From IMG/VR virus record IMGVR_UViG_3300042259_000065: 51,314 nucleotides of DNA, one strand, 5' to 3'. Numbering within the stretch: position 1 is the first letter of the stretch; every line of letters starts with the position of its first letter. The notes under the pieces were generated by a model. It saw only the letters and a list, made by a program, of their open reading frames with translations. It was not told where the DNA came from and ran no database searches. This DNA is from a virus (lineage: Duplodnaviria > Heunggongvirae > Uroviricota > Caudoviricetes). Of this stretch, positions 1,808-24,690 are shown in pieces. The position numbers and the translations under genes are program-made.

Positions 1808-2914
1808 ATGTTATTAGCACATAAGGTCGAATTACGGCCTTCTAAAGAGCAACATGAGAAACTACTACAATGGGTTGGAACAACACGACATTGTTTCAAT
1901 AGTATGTTAGATAATTTCTCTAAAGAAGGAGTTAAGTTTTCTAAGAAAACAGCTAGAGAATATCTCTATAACACGTTACGTGTAGAGAATGAGTGGTATT
2001 CTGACGTAAGTCAGGCTATCCTCCAAGAATCTATTAATGACTTAGAAAACTCATATAAGCGTTTCTTTAAGAAGCTAAGTGGTTATCCAAGATTCAAGAA
2101 ACGTGGAGCTAAAGATTCTTTCTCTATCAGAGAAAGTAAGAAGTTTAAAGTAGAGGGAAGAAACCTTTATTTAGAGAAGTTCAATAGAGGTAAAGATAGT
2201 AAACCTCTAAAATTACGTGAGAAACTGCGTTTCGATGGTGTTCCTAAACAAGTCACTATATCTTACCATAACGATAAGTGGTGGGCTTCTATCTTAGTCG
2301 AAGGTTGTTCTAATTATAAAGGGGACTTTCCGCAAAGCGGAGAAGTTGGAATTGACTTAGGTATTAAAGATTTAGCTATACTTTCTGATGGAACTGGGTT
2401 CCAAAAGAGTAACAAACTATCTTTAAGTTTAGAGAAGTTAGTTAAACTTCAAAAGAAGTTATCTAAGAAAAAGAAAGGATCTAATCGGTATGCGAAAGCC
2501 AAGCTTTCGATTAGTAAACTTCACTTTAGAATACGTAAACAACGTGAAGCGTTGCTTCACAATGTGAGTCATACAATCACATCTAAGTACAAAACAATCT
2601 GTTTAGAAGATTTATCTGTTTCGTCAATGACGAGAGGTAAGAACAAAAAGTTAAACAGATTGGTACTAGATGTAGGTATGTATGAGTTGCGTAGGCAACT
2701 AGAATATAAATCTTTCTTAAGGGGTGTTGACATCTACTTCGTAGATAGATACTACCCTTCAAGTAAGATTCACTACGAATGTGGTTATAAGAATGATAAT
2801 CTTAAGCTAGGTGAATCTTCTTGGAAATGTGATAATTGTGGTCAACTTGTTGACAGAGATTTAAATGCTTCTAAGAATATTCTTAAAGAGGGTTTGCGTT
2901 TAGCAAACAAATAG
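1808..2914 (+). CDS. tnpB: TnpB RNA-guided endonuclease, canonical type
   Basis: N-terminal AHKVELRPSKEQ HTH; RuvC-I GIDLG, RuvC-II CLEDL, Zn ribbon HYECG...CDNC, RuvC-III DRDLNAS. All three catalytic acids are present. Confidence 0.95.
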   Translation: MLLAHKVELRPSKEQHEKLLQWVGTTRHCFNSMLDNFSKEGVKFSKKTAREYLYNTLRVENEWYSDVSQAILQESINDLENSYKRFFKKLSGYPRFKKRGAKDSFSIRESKKFKVEGRNLYLEKFNRGKDSKPLKLREKLRFDGVPKQVTISYHNDKWWASILVEGCSNYKGDFPQSGEVGIDLGIKDLAILSDGTGFQKSNKLSLSLEKLVKLQKKLSKKKKGSNRYAKAKLSISKLHFRIRKQREALLHNVSHTITSKYKTICLEDLSVSSMTRGKNKKLNRLVLDVGMYELRRQLEYKSFLRGVDIYFVDRYYPSSKIHYECGYKNDNLKLGESSWKCDNCGQLVDRDLNASKNILKEGLRLANK

Positions 2915-3070: not shown

Positions 3071-6000
3071 ATGACAGAACGTGTAAGGAGTCAGTATACA
3101 AACTTGGTTAAGTTAAAGCTTGATCAACGAAGTTTGAAAAGGACTCGTAAACAGATACAAAACTTCAGATCTGAAGTTGCTAAAATGTTAAAACTTCAAG
3201 TAGATGTTGGAGGTTTAGGTACAAGTAAAAGAGGTTCTGGTTCAAGAATAACTAAACCTTATGAAGATAAAACTAAGTTCCAAAAAGCATCTAACACCCT
3301 GCTTGCTGACCAATTAAAAATTGAAGACAAATTAGCTAAAAAACAAGAACAACGTGTTCAAATGGAACAGAATGCACGTAGGAAGCAAGCAGTAGGTGGT
3401 TTAATATCTGACGGCACTAACAAAGCATCGCAAACGGCTTTTGCTGATATGCTACGCTCCGAAAACAAAGCTAAATCACCACTACATGATTCTCATGTAA
3501 GAATGCAACGTGACCAAGAAAAGTTTAATGCTTTGCAAGAAAAGTCAATTAGAAATTTCATGGTATCTAATCGTGCGATCAGGCAGATGAGTGATGAAGA
3601 GAAAGCAGTTCTTAAACAAAAACTCATGCAAGCTAAAACTCAAGAACAGCTTATTTATCTAATGAGAAAAGAACGTGCAGCAATCTCTGATACTCTTGCA
3701 CAGAATCGTAGATTAACACGTGAAGTAGAAAAGCGTAATGTTTTCCAACAGCGTATGAACTCTTCTGTAATGCAGATGGTTGGAACGCTCGGTAGTGCTT
3801 ATGCTTTAACAGCAGGAATTAGTTCTTCTTTGAACATCGGTATGCAAATGGAATCTATGCAGAAGAGTTTCAAGGTTGTATCAACTGATTCTAAAGCAGC
3901 AGCAGAGAATATAGCTTGGGTACGTTCAGAAGCTATGCGCTTAGGTTCTCCAATCATGGAAGCAAGTAAGGGTTTCTCATCTATGATTGCTGCTGCTGGC
4001 GACAAGATGACAATGGATGACCTTAAAGCTACCTTTACAGGTATTCAAGAAGCTGGTGTTGCACTGGGTCTAAGTCGGGAAGATTTAGGTGGTACAATCT
4101 TAGCTGTTAAACAAATGCTGTCTAGACTTTTGGGCAGGGTAAACTTCTTTAATTCAGGGGAACCCCTAACATTTTAAGATGAGGGCAATCCTGAGCGAAG
4201 GTTTCACTTAAAGTGATTCAACGTGCAAAGACTATTGGTGATGAGTGTAGCCAAGTAGGGTCAAGTGACTCGAAACAGGAAGCTGTACATTGTACAGAGG
4301 ATATAGTCTGAACTTCTATGGAGACATAGAGACGCAGGTAAAGCTGCTGGCTAAGCTTAACGAACTTAGTTGAACACATTGAAAGGTAAAATACAGGCTT
4401 GATTGTAGGTCTGTCTAAACTCCTCTAATTGCTGGAAACTCTGAAGGAATTAACTAGGATATTAATTGGTAACAATTAACGAACCCTGAAAATGTTAATT
4501 ATGATTACAGACAATCAGCATCGAAGATTCCTATTGGAATAACGATCAACGACTAGAACGAAAGTTCGTAGAGTATAAGTCACATATGATACTCGAAACG
4601 GGGAGCAATCACAAGATTGAAGATATAGTCTCGACTCTGCAGAGATGTAGAGCAGCAAGTAAAGTTGCGGGAAAGAGTTTGTGCCTCTTTTTGAAGATAA
4701 CGGATGAGCTTAATGTGTAGGTTCTTTCTGCAGAAATGCAGTCAATAAAACTAATTTAATTGCTGGAAAACCCTTAGAGCTTGATAATACTAACTTAGCA
4801 TGGTAACATAGCTAAGGGCAAGTGGTAATGCACTTGGTAGAGTAAAAAGTTATCAAGATTGGGCAATCAGCAGTCAACAATCTATAACTCGAAAACAGTA
4901 GAGGTATTATGTCTATTTTTATAAATAATGAAGAAGTTAAAGTGTGTCCTAATTATCCTAATTATGGTGCAAGTAAGGATGGTAATATTTACAGATTATC
5001 CACCAAAAAGCTTATGTCAAAGATAAAAGCTTATGATGGTTATTTAGATGTTAGAGTGTGTCATGATAATACCCCTAAGTCTGTCAAGTATCATGTAGTT
5101 GTGGCAGATGCTTGGTTACCATATGAAGAAGGTAAAGATTTTATAAATCATATAAATGGTGATAAATCTGATCCAAGAGTTTCAAATCTTGAGAGATGTA
5201 CTGGTGCGGAAAATCAGAGACACGCTATAAAAACGGGGTTGAAATCTAAAGGAGAAGACCTTTATAACTCAGTACTAACAAATGATAACGTACATGAGAT
5301 TTGTAAGTTACTATCGGATGGGATAACAGTTAAAAGCCTATCAGAGATGTATGGTGTGAGTAAGGATGTTATTAGGAAGATTAAAGATGGTTCCAATTAT
5401 CACTCTATTCGAAAGTTGTACTTAAACATCCCGCATAATTACCCAAATGAATTTTCAGAATCCACTATTAGGTGGGTTTGTGAGCAGATAGTAAAAGGTG
5501 TTGCAGATAACAATATTGCGAAGTCCAGTAACAATAAAAATTTATCATCTGCTGAAGTTAAAAGAATTAGACATAAAATAAGATATAAAATTATATCAGA
5601 TGAGTATTTCATAGATTGAGATTCAGAGACTATTCCGAAAGGAAGTAGGGTGTAAGTTAATGACACTCGAAAATATTAGCCCTAAACAGGTAAAGCTGAA
5701 GGTGAAGATATAGTCCGATCTATAAGGAAACTTATAGCAGCAAGTAAAGTTGCGGAGGTGGATTTACGAACCACCTCGAACACAATGAACACAACAACTG
5801 GGAGAAAGGGTGCCCTTTGCAATGCGAGCTATGGCAAAAGCCGCTGTAGATGCAGGATTGATTGACGGAAGTAAGACAGCTCAAGAACGTGAAGCTGCAT
5901 TGTTTAAATTAATGGAACAGGGTAAGTTAATCTCTGGTGATGTTTTACCATACTTTGGTAAAGCAATGAGTGAACTTGCTAACAATAATGACGAATTAGC

Positions 6001-6766
6001 AAAAGCACTTCGTGAAAACTTGGCTCCGGCTTTAGGTCGAGCAAGTAACCACCTTGTAGACTTACAAACAAAAATGTATGATGGTATGAAACCTTCTGTT
6101 ATGTTTGCATTGGACGGTTTTAGCGACTTAGCAAAAGAAGCTAATAATGCTGCATACTTTACAGGTACTATACTTGGTGGTGCACTATTTGGTTTAACTA
6201 CAATTATTCGTTTACCAGTAGCTGCATTAACAGATTTAGCTTATTGGATCTCAGATGTAACTGGATTAAGTGATGAATCCACTAAACATTTGTTAAGTTG
6301 GACAGGAACAGTGATTGGAGCCGCCGCAGGTGTGTGGGTATTAGTTAAATCTGTAAAAGCTTTAGCTACTGCTTATAAAGTTGCAAAACGTGCAGCAGAT
6401 GCAATGAAAACTTTAACAGGAAAAGCACCAACTACGGCTGCAACAACAGCAGCAAGCACTGGCACAAGAGGTGTAGTATCAACTGCAGCAAGAGGTGCAT
6501 TAAGACAATCTGGTAAGCTACTTGGACCATTAGGTGTACTTCTCTCTGGTTATGAAGGTGGTACGAGTTTATATGATAGACTTTCTACAACTAATGAACG
6601 TAATGCTAATGTTATGCAGTGGCTTAAAGAGCGTGGTAAATTGCAAATTGACATCAACGTCAACCCTAATGGATTGGATGATGTAATCGAAGCTAAAGTT
6701 GAGAAGAGTAATGGTGATATGCTAGAAGGTGCAGCAATGAATCTTTCTTCTGGGAGTATTAAATAA
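3071..6766 (+). CDS. Tape measure protein, spliced: join(3071..4123, 4382..4399, 4703..4710, 5788..6766), 685 aa
   Basis: Joined exons restore the tape-measure motif QMLS-KGKIQA-DEL-TQQLGERVP in a single frame. SD AGGAG; Ala-rich C-terminal half with hydrophobic segments. Confidence 0.9.
4124..4381 (+). ncRNA. Group I intron TMP-I1 (258 nt, no ORF)
   Basis: 5' exon ends in U and intron ends in G. P1 CTGTCT/GGGCAG with U.G at the splice site; P10 ACTTTT/AAAGGT; P aattcagggga, Q gcaatcctgagc, R aagacta, S ggatatagtct. Confidence 0.9.
4400..4702 (+). ncRNA. Group I intron TMP-I2 (303 nt, no ORF)
   Basis: P1 ACAGGCT/GGTCTGT (7 bp); P aattgctggaaa, Q caatcagca, R tcaacgacta, S aagatatagtct; ends gaagataacG. 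Confidence 0.88.
4711..5787 (+). ncRNA. Group I intron TMP-I3 (1077 nt) carrying an HNH endonuclease
   Basis: P1 GAGCT/GGTTC; P10 TGTGT/ACACA; P aattgctggaaa, Q gcaatcagcag, R ttcagagacta, S aagatatagtcc; ends gaacacaatG. Confidence 0.9.
4909..5619 (+). CDS. Intron-encoded HNH homing endonuclease
   Basis: HVVVADAW...INHINGDKSDPRVSNLERCTGAENQRHA (HNH_3-like). Sits between CAATCTAT and ATAGATTG, i.e. in the P6 loop. Confidence 0.9.
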   Translation: MSIFINNEEVKVCPNYPNYGASKDGNIYRLSTKKLMSKIKAYDGYLDVRVCHDNTPKSVKYHVVVADAWLPYEEGKDFINHINGDKSDPRVSNLERCTGAENQRHAIKTGLKSKGEDLYNSVLTNDNVHEICKLLSDGITVKSLSEMYGVSKDVIRKIKDGSNYHSIRKLYLNIPHNYPNEFSESTIRWVCEQIVKGVADNNIAKSSNNKNLSSAEVKRIRHKIRYKIISDEYFID

Positions 6767-17106: not shown

Positions 17107-18547
17107 TCAAAATGGAATCCTTTGTGTTCAGAAGGTATCGCAACTTACCTTCCCGTCATTATGACAGCTATATGTTTCCATATAGAGCAGACTATATCAT
17201 CAACTACTTGAGTTGCTGTGCGCTTGGGGAGCCATTTGCTTGCTCTCTACAGGGTTACACTCATCACCCTTAGTCGTTACACTTTCAACCACAGTTGTGG
17301 AAGCTTAGCTCGGATATTGTCTTCACCTTTACGTGGTCAGATGTCTACCGAATTCACACAGTTTTCGACATACCTCACAGTATGAAGCGACCTTATTGAT
17401 CGTCATCAAAGAACATTGTTGGTTCACTGGAACTGTAATCACTCTCAGAAGGTTTTTCCTCTTTCTGCACAGGTTTGCTTGCCTGAGAAGGTTTCTCTTC
17501 ACCACGAGCTTCCTGTTGAGGATTGGAGGGTGTTTGCGCAATATTTGCACCCTTAGCATCAAGAGCTTTCTTCAAATCAGAATCTTCCCAATTACAACCC
17601 AACCAGAAGTCAGGAGCTTTAACAGCATTAGGTTGGAAAGCTTTTGCACGAGGAAGCACACACATCAATTCCTTGCGGTGACTTACCCAAGATACAACAT
17701 CATCAGAATAATCACCACCATTTAGAAGTACACCATAGAATTCACTGTTACATTCTGGAATTTGGTCTTCACGTTTGATTACATTATCACCAACTTCTAC
17801 ATCAGAAATTTCTGAATGTTCAACAATAATTTCATTGAAGAAACGCTCACCTTTCTCAGCAACCAATGTGACATTACAAGCTTGGTTGGCAAAGACACCA
17901 ATATCATATTCTTTTGAATATTCATCGGCAATATTTAGAGAGTTAGCCATTTTCATCAGTGGGCTATTTGGTGAAAGTTTACCTGTACGGAAATTAGGAT
18001 TGAAGCGAAGGTGCTTACGCATATCCTCGATACCCATAGAATCAATCTTAACATAACCATTGAAACAAACACGAAGAGGTTTAACTCCAAGATGATGCAG
18101 TGCTTCAATAGGGTGTTTAGTCCAGTCAATTTCTACTTTAGGAATGTCGAAGTATAGTGCAAATTCTTGAGTTGGTCGCTCAGGTTTGAATTGCATACGT
18201 TTACCATCAACATCTTTGAAGTAGTTATCAGGATATTTTTCAACATGAGCTTTCTCTTCATCAGAGAGTTGGTCACCTTTGCCAGCAACACCTTTCCATT
18301 CATAAGAAGCATCTTGTTGTGGTTGCAAACCTAAGTCTGCAATACCTTTACAGATAGCAACATATTTCTTACGCTTCTGCATAATACCTTCACGAATCTC
18401 ACCATCAGCTTTAGTGGCTTGGACTTCCTTACCATCAAAAAGTGACCAGTAATATTCATTCCACGCTGTCCATGCTTCATCTGGAACTTGACTTGCAGAT
18501 TGACCACCAGTTGATGTAGGGATTTGTGGTTTCATTGAAAATGTCAT
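17107..18547 (-). CDS. ssb: Single-stranded DNA-binding protein, spliced: complement(join(17107..17118, 17399..18547)), 386 aa ending FFDDDIPF
   Basis: Replication-module context, long Pro/Gln/Glu-rich linker, and splicing yields the DDDIPF SSB-Ct tip. SSB identity is inferred from the tail and context. Confidence 0.75.
17119..17398 (-). ncRNA. Group I intron in the SSB-like gene (280 nt, no ORF)
   Basis: Minus strand: P1 CGAT/GTCG with U.G; P gtgaattcggta, Q caatatccgagc, R gtaacgacta, S gatgatatagtct; ends gaacacaaagG before ATTCCATTTTGA. Confidence 0.88.
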
Positions 18548-21695: not shown

Positions 21696-24690
21696 TTAGT
21701 GTGCACCACTCCAGCCCTCTTCAGGTGTTGCCATTAGATACTCACCTGTAATCGGGACTTTAAACTCTAACATCTTATAAGCATCTTCAATACACTTAAC
21801 CATTAACTCACCTGCCCGACAATAAGCCCTTGCAATATTGCCATTGTCTAGAACTTTTGTATTGCCAGAGAGGACAAACTTACCACCATTCAACTCCTTT
21901 GCAGATTTAGAAGCAGAGCAGACCTGATGCAAGTTTTCTAGAGTAATACCGTATTGAAGACAGATATCCTCTTCCGATTGATATTCTTTTTCCTTAGCTT
22001 TAGCTTTCTCAGCATCATCAACACTTTTCAGAATATTCTCTATGAGAGATTTATCATTCAACCCAGTTGGAAACTCTTTAAGACGGACTAGATTATCAGG
22101 TACTTGTAACTGGTACTCATCCTTTTAATTTTAGAGACGTTACTCTCTTTCCACAATTTCTTGCGTAATTGGATCATATCACAATCTGTAAAACAGATTC
22201 CCCGCTTTTCGAAATCCACTTGGATTCCTACGAACAACTATGTTCTGATCTCTGCACACCTTGCGATGCTCAGGATTGCCTTTGCCATTACGCAGTAAGG
22301 TTTCCCTGAATTAACGGAGTTTTTCGACACACCTCACGATGTGAAGCCACAATGAGTTTATGGTAGTAAATTATACGAGCTACACCTTTATCTAACAGTC
22401 CTTCCTCTAAAGCCCTCTCATGCCATAGAATGCCTGCTAAGTCCATACCGATTGCACCCATAGATTGTAGATAAGCATTAAGGAGACTATGCTTGGAACG
22501 AGTCCAAATCTTACGCTTATCTATACCTAAAATATAGCGTTTCCCTGTTGACTCCCAGAACTTCTCTAACCATTCTTTACACCCTTTAAGACCAAAGTTA
22601 GTATCCCAGAATGCATTAATTACATCTTGAGCAGCGTCCTTACTGATGCCCAACATAGCCGATACCTTAGCTGCTTGAGCGCCATACAGCACTCCATAGG
22701 TAATTCCTTTACCTTCAGAACGTGATACTGTTCTTCCTGCAGCCTTAGAATATGCTTTGGCATTCTCAGTATGGGGGTCCCCACTCAATCCACGATAATA
22801 AGCACCACCATCAAATGGGTAAGCAGCATTAGCAGCACAGAAGCCCTCTAGGTTACTTCCATCTATACCTACTTGCCAAAATCCCTCTGGAACAGTGAAC
22901 AATTCCCTCATTTCATGCCCTAAAAGAGCATCTGATCCGGGGATATTGGCTATGACGGAGTGTTTTCGTCTGTTTGTGTTGGTAAGTCCAGAATATCGTG
23001 CTGGAAGTTTACCATCTTTCTTGAGTCGAGGATGATTTAGCCAACCAGTTTCTTTAGTTTCATCTATAGCTTTAATAACTGAGCGTCTATTACGAAGAGA
23101 CAACCATTTAACAATCTTAGATGCCATTTCACCATCAATCTTTTCAAGATTGGGACAAAGTTCCCCTCTATCATCCTTAAGTTTAGGACTTGTTACCAAG
23201 AAACGAGACTTCTTGACAACCTTCTTGAAGTCTGGATGGTTTCTATTGGTAATCTTTTCTAGTTTAACTCCCATCTCTTGATTGATATAGGGCAGGTAAA
23301 TAGAGTCCCTTTTCTCCAATATATACTCCCAACAGGATTCCTCCACCTCAAAGTCAGGTCTATTTTGTTTATTATCGTCCCTAGAGACATCCTTGGTACG
23401 GAACAACGTAGGAACCCAATTACCATCAGTTACAAGCCATTGCTTGATATCGTCTTGATTTGATAGTCTCATTGGTTCGAACAAAAACTCCTCTGGGATG
23501 TATTTTTCTTCAAGAAGCTTTCTTGCTTTAACCTCATCCTCTGCCGATAGAATACTTGTAGATTCCTCCTTTTGACGTTGTGATCTAATGAAGTCTCCCA
23601 TTTGATCTTCATCTTCAACACCATGATTGACACAATATCTCTTTCCTGCAACAGATAATTCACCCGTTTTCTTAAATGCAGTTTTTGGAGGAGCTACAAA
23701 CTTCTGTGCATCACGATCAACTTCAATATTGTAATACTTCTCAATAAAGTTTAGCCCGTGGTGTGAGATATTACCATCTTTATCAAAAGGATTAGCTGGA
23801 AAATTAGGTTCTCTTGATTTTGGGACTCGTTTTGGGGGAAGTTTAGGTTCTACATCTTCCTCAATCTCCCGCATCATTTTATCGACTTTCTCAACTAATT
23901 CCCAAGCTTTATCCTCTCGGAACACTACACCCTGCTCTTCTTGAACCTGCATTAAGTGGTCAGAGAGGAGATTACGCTTCAAAGGCAATCTCCAATCAAC
24001 ACCTTTATCCTTTCCATCCTGCATTTCTTTAATTAAGAATTTCCATTGAAGTTCGTTGATTATTACGTCTTCCCATACACGATCAACATACTTCCATAAC
24101 GGGAGTCCTTTCCAATCTTCAATGGCAACCTTCTTGTTTGCAACCTTGACACCCCATGCCTCCAATGAGTGTGGTCCAATACTTTTTGCTTTTCCTCCTT
24201 GAGGGTTTTTAACTTTAGCAGGACATCCTCTTGGAAGAGGTCGGTCAGGATAAAGGCCACGAGACATACTAAGTGTATCATAGACTCTGATTTCCTTCCC
24301 ATTGATTTTCTCTACGGGAATTTTCTCGTATTTAGTCCCCAGCAGGTAATTGAATGCCAACATATCAAAACCTTCCAAGTTTTGACAGGCAATAGCAATT
24401 GGGTCTTTTACAATCCAATCATTAAACTCACTAAAATCATAGAGGTTTAAATTAACTCCTTTACCTTCTGCAAACTTCTTAGCTTCCTCAAACTCTGGAT
24501 GCTTAAAGTCAAGAAAGAGGTTCCAATTATTCTTTCCATACTCCTTAAACAATAAGGTGTGGAACTTAGAGATGTGGTCTTCATCTGCAATAGATTTTCC
24601 ACATAGACCATCACCTTCAGTGTCGAATATAAATAAGCCTTTCAATATACTTTCCTCTTTAAAATGGTTCATCTCCGTCTTGGTCAACAA
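21696..24690 (-). CDS. Family A (T7-like) DNA polymerase with 3'-5' exonuclease, spliced: complement(join(21696..22121, 22360..24690)); likely start TTG 24645, ~900 aa
   Basis: ExoI FDTEGD; motif A IDGSNLE; motif B RSEGKGITYGVLYG; motif C YYH|DEYQ restored by splicing. Confidence 0.92.
22122..22359 (-). ncRNA. Group I intron in DNA polymerase motif C (238 nt, no ORF)
   Basis: P1 CCAT/GTGG; 7-bp P10 ACTCATT/GATGAGT; P aattcaggga, Q gcaatcctgagc; P7 GATCA/TGATC; terminal G at 22122. Confidence 0.9.

Follow-up and report, generated by a model that had tools for sequence, protein, structure and literature searches.

The virus record IMGVR_UViG_3300042259_000065 (IMG/VR; Caudoviricetes) raises the question of how a phage could make one tape-measure protein (TMP) from a gene that lies in four pieces, two of them 18 and 8 nucleotides (nt) long. 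The whole 51,314-nt stretch of DNA is referred to below as the window; the locus in question falls within a Vibrio myophage group of about 125-140 kb. We conclude that the gene very probably contains three functional self-splicing group I introns, the removal of which would restore a single TMP. Its proposed parts, together with the endonuclease gene carried by the third intron, are as follows (ORF, open reading frame).

3071-4123, plus strand: TMP exon 1, 351 codons, within ORF 3071-4177
4124-4381, plus strand: group I intron 1, 258 nt, ORF-less, at insertion site s1
4382-4399, plus strand: micro-exon 2, 18 nt, AAAGGTAAAATACAGGCT, encoding KGKIQA
4400-4702, plus strand: group I intron 2, 303 nt, ORF-less, at site s2
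4703-4710, plus strand: micro-exon 3, 8 nt, GATGAGCT, encoding Asp, Glu and bases 1-2 of a Leu codon
4711-5787, plus strand: group I intron 3, 1077 nt, at site s3, with an HNH endonuclease gene in its P6 loop
4909-5619, plus strand: HNH homing endonuclease, 236 amino acids (aa), within the P6-loop insert of intron 3
5788-6766, plus strand: TMP exon 4, 979 nt, whose first base completes the Leu codon and is followed by 325 codons and a stop

Exon 1 ends at position 4123 with ...CAA ATG CTG TCT, and its frame, if read on without splicing, meets a stop at 4175-4177, 18 codons into intron 1. Joining 4123 to 4382-4399, 4703-4710 and 5788 gives an open frame of 2058 nt, corresponding to 685 codons and a stop. 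The predicted translation across the spliced junctions contains QMLSKGKIQADELTQQLGERVP and AVKQMLSKGKIQADELTQQLGERVPFAMRAM, and the peptide segments spanning the junctions are KGKIQADELTQQLGER and GKIQADELTQQLGER. Comparisons with other phages and with protein profiles support this product. First, the spliced 685-aa protein aligns without gaps to the uninterrupted TMPs of the Vibrio phages VnaP (680 aa) and PWH3a-P1 (621 aa); in the junction region, SKGKIQADELTQQLGE in the window stands opposite SKNKIMAEELTGQLGE and GKQKFQAEELRQQMGD in these uninterrupted homologues. Second, full-length TMP profiles reach the end of exon 1 and resume at the start of exon 4, and each of phrog_25927, phrog_5255, phrog_28779 and phrog_2335 leaves exactly nine positions unmatched between the two, the nine codons that 18 + 8 + 1 nt provide. 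Exon 1 matches the tape-measure family phrog_35923 (E 3.1e-74), and exon 4 matches positions 288-623 of 625 in phrog_25927 (E 2.7e-74). Third, the Pfam domain TMP_3 (PF20155) is broken at the same point: the match to exon 1 by itself reaches 40.2 bits (cut-off 41) over residues 254-351, spans profile positions 4-102 of 192 and ends at the last residue of exon 1, whereas the two uninterrupted homologues, at 62 and 81 bits, are matched over positions 2-186 and 2-188. Removal of all three introns, as predicted here, is what restores the most conserved motif of this domain. A preliminary description of this DNA had proposed exactly these boundaries, with introns of 258, 303 and 1077 nt and micro-exons of 18 and 8 nt, a Leu codon split by exon 3, and recovery of a tape-measure motif on joining; all of this is borne out by the open 2058-nt frame and the gap-free alignment to VnaP and PWH3a-P1.

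In related phages the gene stands in the order sheath, tube, chaperone, TMP, baseplate, and their GenBank records annotate it as two separate 'tape measure' coding sequences (CDSs). If the spliced product is correct, the true product in these relatives is a single protein, nine central residues of which fall outside both annotated CDSs. Taken at face value, the same records favour a reading in which two cooperating polypeptides, one from ORF 3071-4177 and one starting at GTG 5810, are made separately and the introns are non-splicing relics. GGAGAAAGG precedes GTG 5810 and could serve as a ribosome-binding site, and a phage gene split by a homing endonuclease and still working is known from the nrd case cited in PMC10448857. 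The GGAG...GTG stretch, however, codes for the conserved LGERV, and the break between the two ORFs would lie in the middle of the TMP_3 domain.

Group I introns were called with cmscan against Rfam family RF00028 (gathering score 50), an Infernal search of the kind that the preliminary description had suggested as a check. Introns 1 and 2 exceed the gathering score, with 77.8 bits (E 3.7e-18, match 4045-4331) and 72.6 bits (E 1.4e-16, match 4351-4652), respectively. Intron 3 appears under relaxed thresholds as two halves, one at 4761-4917 (P4-P6, 18.1 bits) and the other at 5600-5737 (P7-P9, 34.8 bits), which flank the ORF at 4909-5619. It aligns end to end with the ORF-less s3 introns of the phages vB_CoeS_P1 and S4-7, and the sole large insertion relative to these counterparts is one of 722 nt (4889-5610) in the P6 loop; ORF-less orthologues of intron 3 score 50.2 (vB_CoeS_P1), 62.4 (S4-7) and 48.9 bits against RF00028. 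Judged by this alignment, intron 3 is the same ribozyme as the ORF-less s3 introns plus a single 722-nt insert.

Each of the three introns shows the splice-site pairings expected from the preliminary description, which had reported a P1 with U.G at the splice site and a terminal G throughout, and a P10 that is clear for introns 1 and 3 and weak for intron 2. P1 is CUGUCU/GGGCAG (6 bp) in intron 1, ACAGGCU/GGUCUGU (7 bp) in intron 2 and GAGCU/GGUUC (5 bp) in intron 3, in every case with the U.G pair at the 5' splice site, and a terminal G closes each intron. P10 is AAAGGU/ACUUUU (6 bp) in intron 1 and ACACA/UGUGU (5 bp) in intron 3. The micro-exons accommodate these pairings: the first 6 nt of exon 2 form the P10 of intron 1 and its last 7 nt the P1 of intron 2, which leaves 5 nt spare, and the P1 of intron 3 takes up the final 5 nt of exon 3, which has 8. 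The earlier statement that exon 3 is nearly all P1 substrate was too strong, given these five nucleotides of eight. Exons of 18 and 8 nt are near the smallest size that can still hold P10 plus P1 pairing. In the cmscan alignments, P7 and P3' are separated by an insert of ~40 nt, and the alignment of s2 introns has two covarying hairpins downstream of P9, within the final 50 nt; by the positions of these inserts, the introns appear to be of subgroup IA type, with a P7.1/P7.2-like insert and P9.1/P9.2.

Covariation among the introns of related phages bears on whether these ribozymes are maintained. The homologous region was mapped in nine other phages besides that of the window. All 21 introns mapped in eight phages, as well as the three of the nearest record (G001), are preceded by U and end in G, and in all 21 introns analysed for pairing in the eight phages the splice-site U is paired to G. 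The guide base opposite exon position -5 at s1 is G, U or A where the exon has C, A or U, respectively, and comparable covariation between guide and exon is found at s2, s3 and s4. In a five-phage RNAalifold alignment of the s2 introns, 50 of the 81 predicted pairs are preserved by changes in both partners, and these compensatory pairs cover P3, P4, P5, P6, P8, P9 and the two post-P9 hairpins. P7 reads either GACUA/UAGUC, as in introns 1-3 of the window, or GACCA/UGGUC, as seen in relatives at the same sites, and there is no mixed case among the 20 introns in which both strands were found. Compensatory changes in both the cores and the guide sequences point to ongoing selection for splicing, and by this pattern the TMP introns are very probably working ribozymes under selection, not relics. 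As a separate observation, most of the 24 mapped TMP introns (those of the window and of loci L001-L010) have the motif TGAAC/G-A-Y-A-W-Y-G in their final 14 nt; this suggests a shared 3'-terminal element, perhaps P9.0, and a common ancestry of the introns at all five insertion sites described below.

The mapped phages carry introns at five sites within 60 nt of coding sequence, with zero to four sites occupied per phage. In the encoded protein the sites are distributed as ...RA (s0) IQQMMS (s1) KGKIQA (s2) EE+L(2 nt) (s3) (1 nt)+TGQLG (s4) ER..., and they are occupied as follows, HNH marking an intron with an endonuclease gene.

Window: s1, s2, s3 (HNH); micro-exons of 18 and 8 nt
G001: s1, s3, s4; micro-exons of 26 and 16 nt
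vB_CoeS_P1: s1, s2, s3, s4; micro-exons of 18, 8 and 16 nt
S4-7: s0, s1, s2, s3; micro-exons of 18, 18 and 8 nt
1.084.O: s1 (HNH), s2, s4 (HNH); micro-exons of 18 and 24 nt
ICP1: s2, s3 (HNH), s4; micro-exons of 8 and 16 nt
R16F: s3 (HNH); no micro-exon
277E43-1: s3 (HNH); no micro-exon
qdvp001: s1 (HNH); no micro-exon
VnaP and PWH3a-P1: no site occupied; no micro-exon

The equivalent of the 18-nt micro-exon 2 thus also lies between introns in vB_CoeS_P1, S4-7 and 1.084.O, and an 8-nt micro-exon at the position of micro-exon 3 also occurs in vB_CoeS_P1, S4-7 and ICP1. Four tandem ORF-less group I introns with three micro-exons each are found in vB_CoeS_P1 (L001, 6352-7565) and S4-7 (L004, 2549-3999), and the GenBank records of both phages show two separate TMP CDSs. 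A homologue of exon 1 occurs in 287 phage records. Gaps in tblastn matches suggest that VPMCC14 and IBT_VpB-34 are further intron-free phages, that PS17B-2, 5P1b and 5P1c each carry one ORF-less intron, and that 10AMN carries several. The possibility that the locus is an assembly artefact was considered and rejected, in view of the same architecture in independently sequenced relatives. A literature search found no paper describing the five-site hotspot or four-intron alleles, and a search on micro-exons with phage group I introns found nothing relevant.

The nearest relative, G001, shares 97.8% identity with the window across the final 600 nt of exon 1. Its exons 2 and 3 are contiguous (26 nt) and intron 2 is precisely absent; as a natural precise deletion, G001 confirms the boundaries of intron 2. 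Intron 1 is 93.4% identical to the s1 intron of G001. The G001 locus itself (L010, reverse strand, 836-1771) has introns at s1, s3 and s4 and none at s2. Its empty s2 reads CAAGCA, without the U needed at the 5' splice site, versus CAGGCT in the window; the empty s4 of the window reads GGA, versus GGT in phages with an s4 intron. Intron 2 (4400-4702) is 96.4% identical to its counterpart in vB_CoeS_P1 (L001, 6623-6926) while the flanking exons are about 71-88% identical, which suggests a recent horizontal transfer of intron 2. A co-conversion tract was also considered, from the rise in exon identity to vB_CoeS_P1 from ~55% to 88% near the cluster, and the rise was set aside as evidence, as it coincides with the conserved TMP_3 domain. 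A hotspot with differing intron combinations in near-identical phages offers a natural system for the study of intron gain and loss, endonuclease turnover and competition during co-infection.

We propose that transcription of the tape-measure gene in this Vibrio myophage gives a single pre-mRNA with three autonomous group I introns, the window representing one combination (s1, s2, s3) drawn from the five-site hotspot. Each ribozyme would find its own 5' splice site through an internal guide that pairs with the upstream exon or micro-exon over its 3'-terminal 5-7 nt, the U.G pair would sit at the cleavage site, and the terminal G would end the intron. Splicing would then link the 351 codons of exon 1 to the 18-nt, 8-nt and 979-nt exons and yield a single 685-codon ORF. 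Each intron would require just the upstream 5-7 nt (P1) and the first few downstream nucleotides (P10), and because the micro-exons just hold the upstream P10 and the downstream P1, the introns probably splice independently and in any order, perhaps with some competition at exon 3 between the P10 of intron 2 and the P1 of intron 3. As the TMP is needed for tail building, virion production should depend on three RNA-catalysed splicing events.

The ORF within intron 3 encodes a putative HNH homing endonuclease. AGAGG is located 4 nt before the ATG of this ORF, whose stop codon overlaps the 3' strand of P6. Residues 61-104 match Pfam HNH_3 (PF13392; 28.5 bits, cut-off 24.8), and the protein matches the HNH endonuclease family phrog_59 (E 5e-41). 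The ICP1 protein gp80/hdgA, encoded in the intron at the same site, shares 51.7% aa identity with it. The s3 endonucleases of the window, ICP1, R16F and 277E43-1 are 46-65% identical among themselves, and their identity to the s1 and s4 endonucleases is about 26-35%, which fits endonuclease lineages that are each specific to one site. The HNH_3 endonuclease most likely cuts or nicks intron-less alleles in co-infecting relatives and so drives homing, and introns 1 and 2, at distances of 8-26 nt, may be carried along by co-conversion.

A wider reading of the hotspot is possible but doubtful. The 60-nt stretch ...A/IQQMxS/KGKIQA/EEL/TxQLG/E... could be a battleground between co-infecting Vibrio myophages, one that at least four site-specific endonuclease lineages may target. 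Each new intron would break up the recognition sequences belonging to its neighbours, and up to four stacked introns would thereby confer simultaneous immunity to several foreign endonucleases, and a retained endonuclease, here that of intron 3, would damage intron-less rivals, by analogy with the intron endonuclease of PhiPA3. If this were true, the combinations s1, s2, s3 in the window, s1, s3, s4 in G001 and s1-s4 in vB_CoeS_P1 would reflect ongoing selection rather than neutral drift of selfish elements.

Several points weigh against the interpretation of the locus as three functional introns that restore one TMP. As a single match, intron 3 falls below the Rfam threshold, owing to its ORF insert. 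Intron 2 has a weak P10 (3-4 bp, offset) that overlaps the P1 of intron 3 by ~2 nt. We infer efficient ligation at an 8-nt exon from ICP1, and likewise infer the target and activity of the endonuclease and the co-conversion of introns 1 and 2. Finally, the support for the interpretation as a whole comes from DNA sequence and from the ICP1 homologue.

Among the alternatives, the one that survives best is that splicing at this locus is regulated, tight packing of the introns either forcing an order of splicing or yielding exon-skipped mRNAs, and so controlling TMP yield or isoforms. We consider this improbable. The preliminary description was right that skipping of exon 2 (18 nt) keeps the frame and skipping of exon 3 (8 nt) breaks it, the overlap of the intron 2 P10 with the intron 3 P1 would be in keeping with some interdependence, and PMC11878797 describes exon skipping by group I introns in Twort orf142 and in a Bastillevirinae polymerase gene; in the window, however, exon skipping is a matter of arithmetic. 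The P10 guide of intron 1, ACUUUU, fits exon 2 and not exon 3 or exon 4, and a TMP without exon 2 is unlikely to work because KGKIQA covers conserved positions of the motif. The arrangement also seems dispensable for regulation, because G001 lacks intron 2 and VnaP lacks introns altogether. Exon skipping and a required order of splicing in the window TMP are speculation. The reading introduced above, of two cooperating polypeptides beside relic introns, is hardly credible, since it gives no reason for the in-frame conservation of nine intervening residues that survive only as micro-exons, since the compensatory changes in cores and guides indicate ongoing selection for splicing, and since the homologous ICP1 gene is spliced, as PMC10448857 reports. 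Three autonomous introns that restore a single TMP remain the preferred interpretation.

Other elements in the window are related to this locus by type or position. RF00028 also matches the minus strand at two places, and because of these matches the window is taken to hold five group I introns, one of them a candidate. The ORF directly upstream of the TMP gene stands in the late structural operon, and a homing endonuclease gene occupies the corresponding position in VnaP.

17168-17421, minus strand: fourth group I intron, 58.8 bits, above the gathering score of 50
22150-22369, minus strand: fifth group I intron candidate, 47.5 bits, just below 50, E 8.7e-10
1808-2914, plus strand: ORF of 368 aa, matching phrog_506 'transposase', E 2.5e-99

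Several known systems resemble the window locus in part. The mitochondrial cox1 gene of Agaricus bisporus has 19 introns and exons down to 3 nt (PMC2987802). Fungal cox1 is similar in that many group I introns and endonuclease genes have accumulated in one conserved gene and leave micro-exons; unlike the window locus, it is an organelle gene, its introns often need protein helpers, and they are spread gene-wide rather than over five sites in 60 nt. A second parallel is orf142 of the Staphylococcus phage Twort (Landthaler & Shub 1999, cited in PMC11878797), likewise a late structural phage gene; three self-splicing group I introns interrupt its single ORF, and exon skipping occurs. According to PMC11878797, however, orf142 is a tail tube gene, and its phage infects a Gram-positive host; exon skipping is demonstrated there and hypothetical in the window. 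The T4 introns of td, nrdB and sunY (subgroup IA2, with endonuclease ORFs looped out of the core) are likewise group I introns of an essential phage gene that self-splice, as is predicted for the window, and they too have an in-frame stop soon past the 5' splice site; the window introns also appear to have an architecture of IA type, with a P7.1/P7.2-like insert. They differ in having one intron per gene and no micro-exons, and their endonucleases are GIY-YIG or defunct rather than HNH_3. The td endonuclease, I-TevI, is located in P6.

The closest system is the TMP gene of ICP1. Barth, Dunham & Seed (2023; PMC10448857) used RNA-seq, reverse transcription PCR and Sanger sequencing to show that its mRNA has four exons and three introns. 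They place an HNH-3 endonuclease gene in the middle intron, whereas in isolate M4 it is the first and third introns that contain endonuclease genes, and they remark that TMP genes are often interrupted. In our analysis the ICP1 region of gp81/gp79 with hdgA/gp80 gives three RF00028 matches, which map to s2, s3 and s4; the micro-exon sizes of 8 and 16 nt come from this mapping, and the exon number from the paper. ICP1 and the window have TMPs of the same family, which contain the same conserved motif and are 37.6% identical (aa) where exon 1 ends; the two loci share s2, s3, the intervening 8-nt micro-exon and an HNH_3 endonuclease in the s3 intron. They differ in the sites occupied, which are s2, s3 and s4 (8 and 16 nt) in ICP1, where s1 is empty, and s1, s2 and s3 (18 and 8 nt) in the window; furthermore, splicing is shown by experiment in ICP1 and is predicted from sequence in the window phage. 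With clustered homologous sites and an HNH-3 endonuclease, the window locus is, by this comparison, a multi-intron TMP locus of the ICP1 type. The preliminary description, whose authorship knew of no TMP micro-exons this short, therefore overstated their novelty, as ICP1 maps with the same 8-nt micro-exon. The multi-intron TMP is already known from ICP1, and what is new in the window is a different set of occupied sites. It is the cross-phage comparison of these sites that is most likely to be useful beyond the ICP1 paper.

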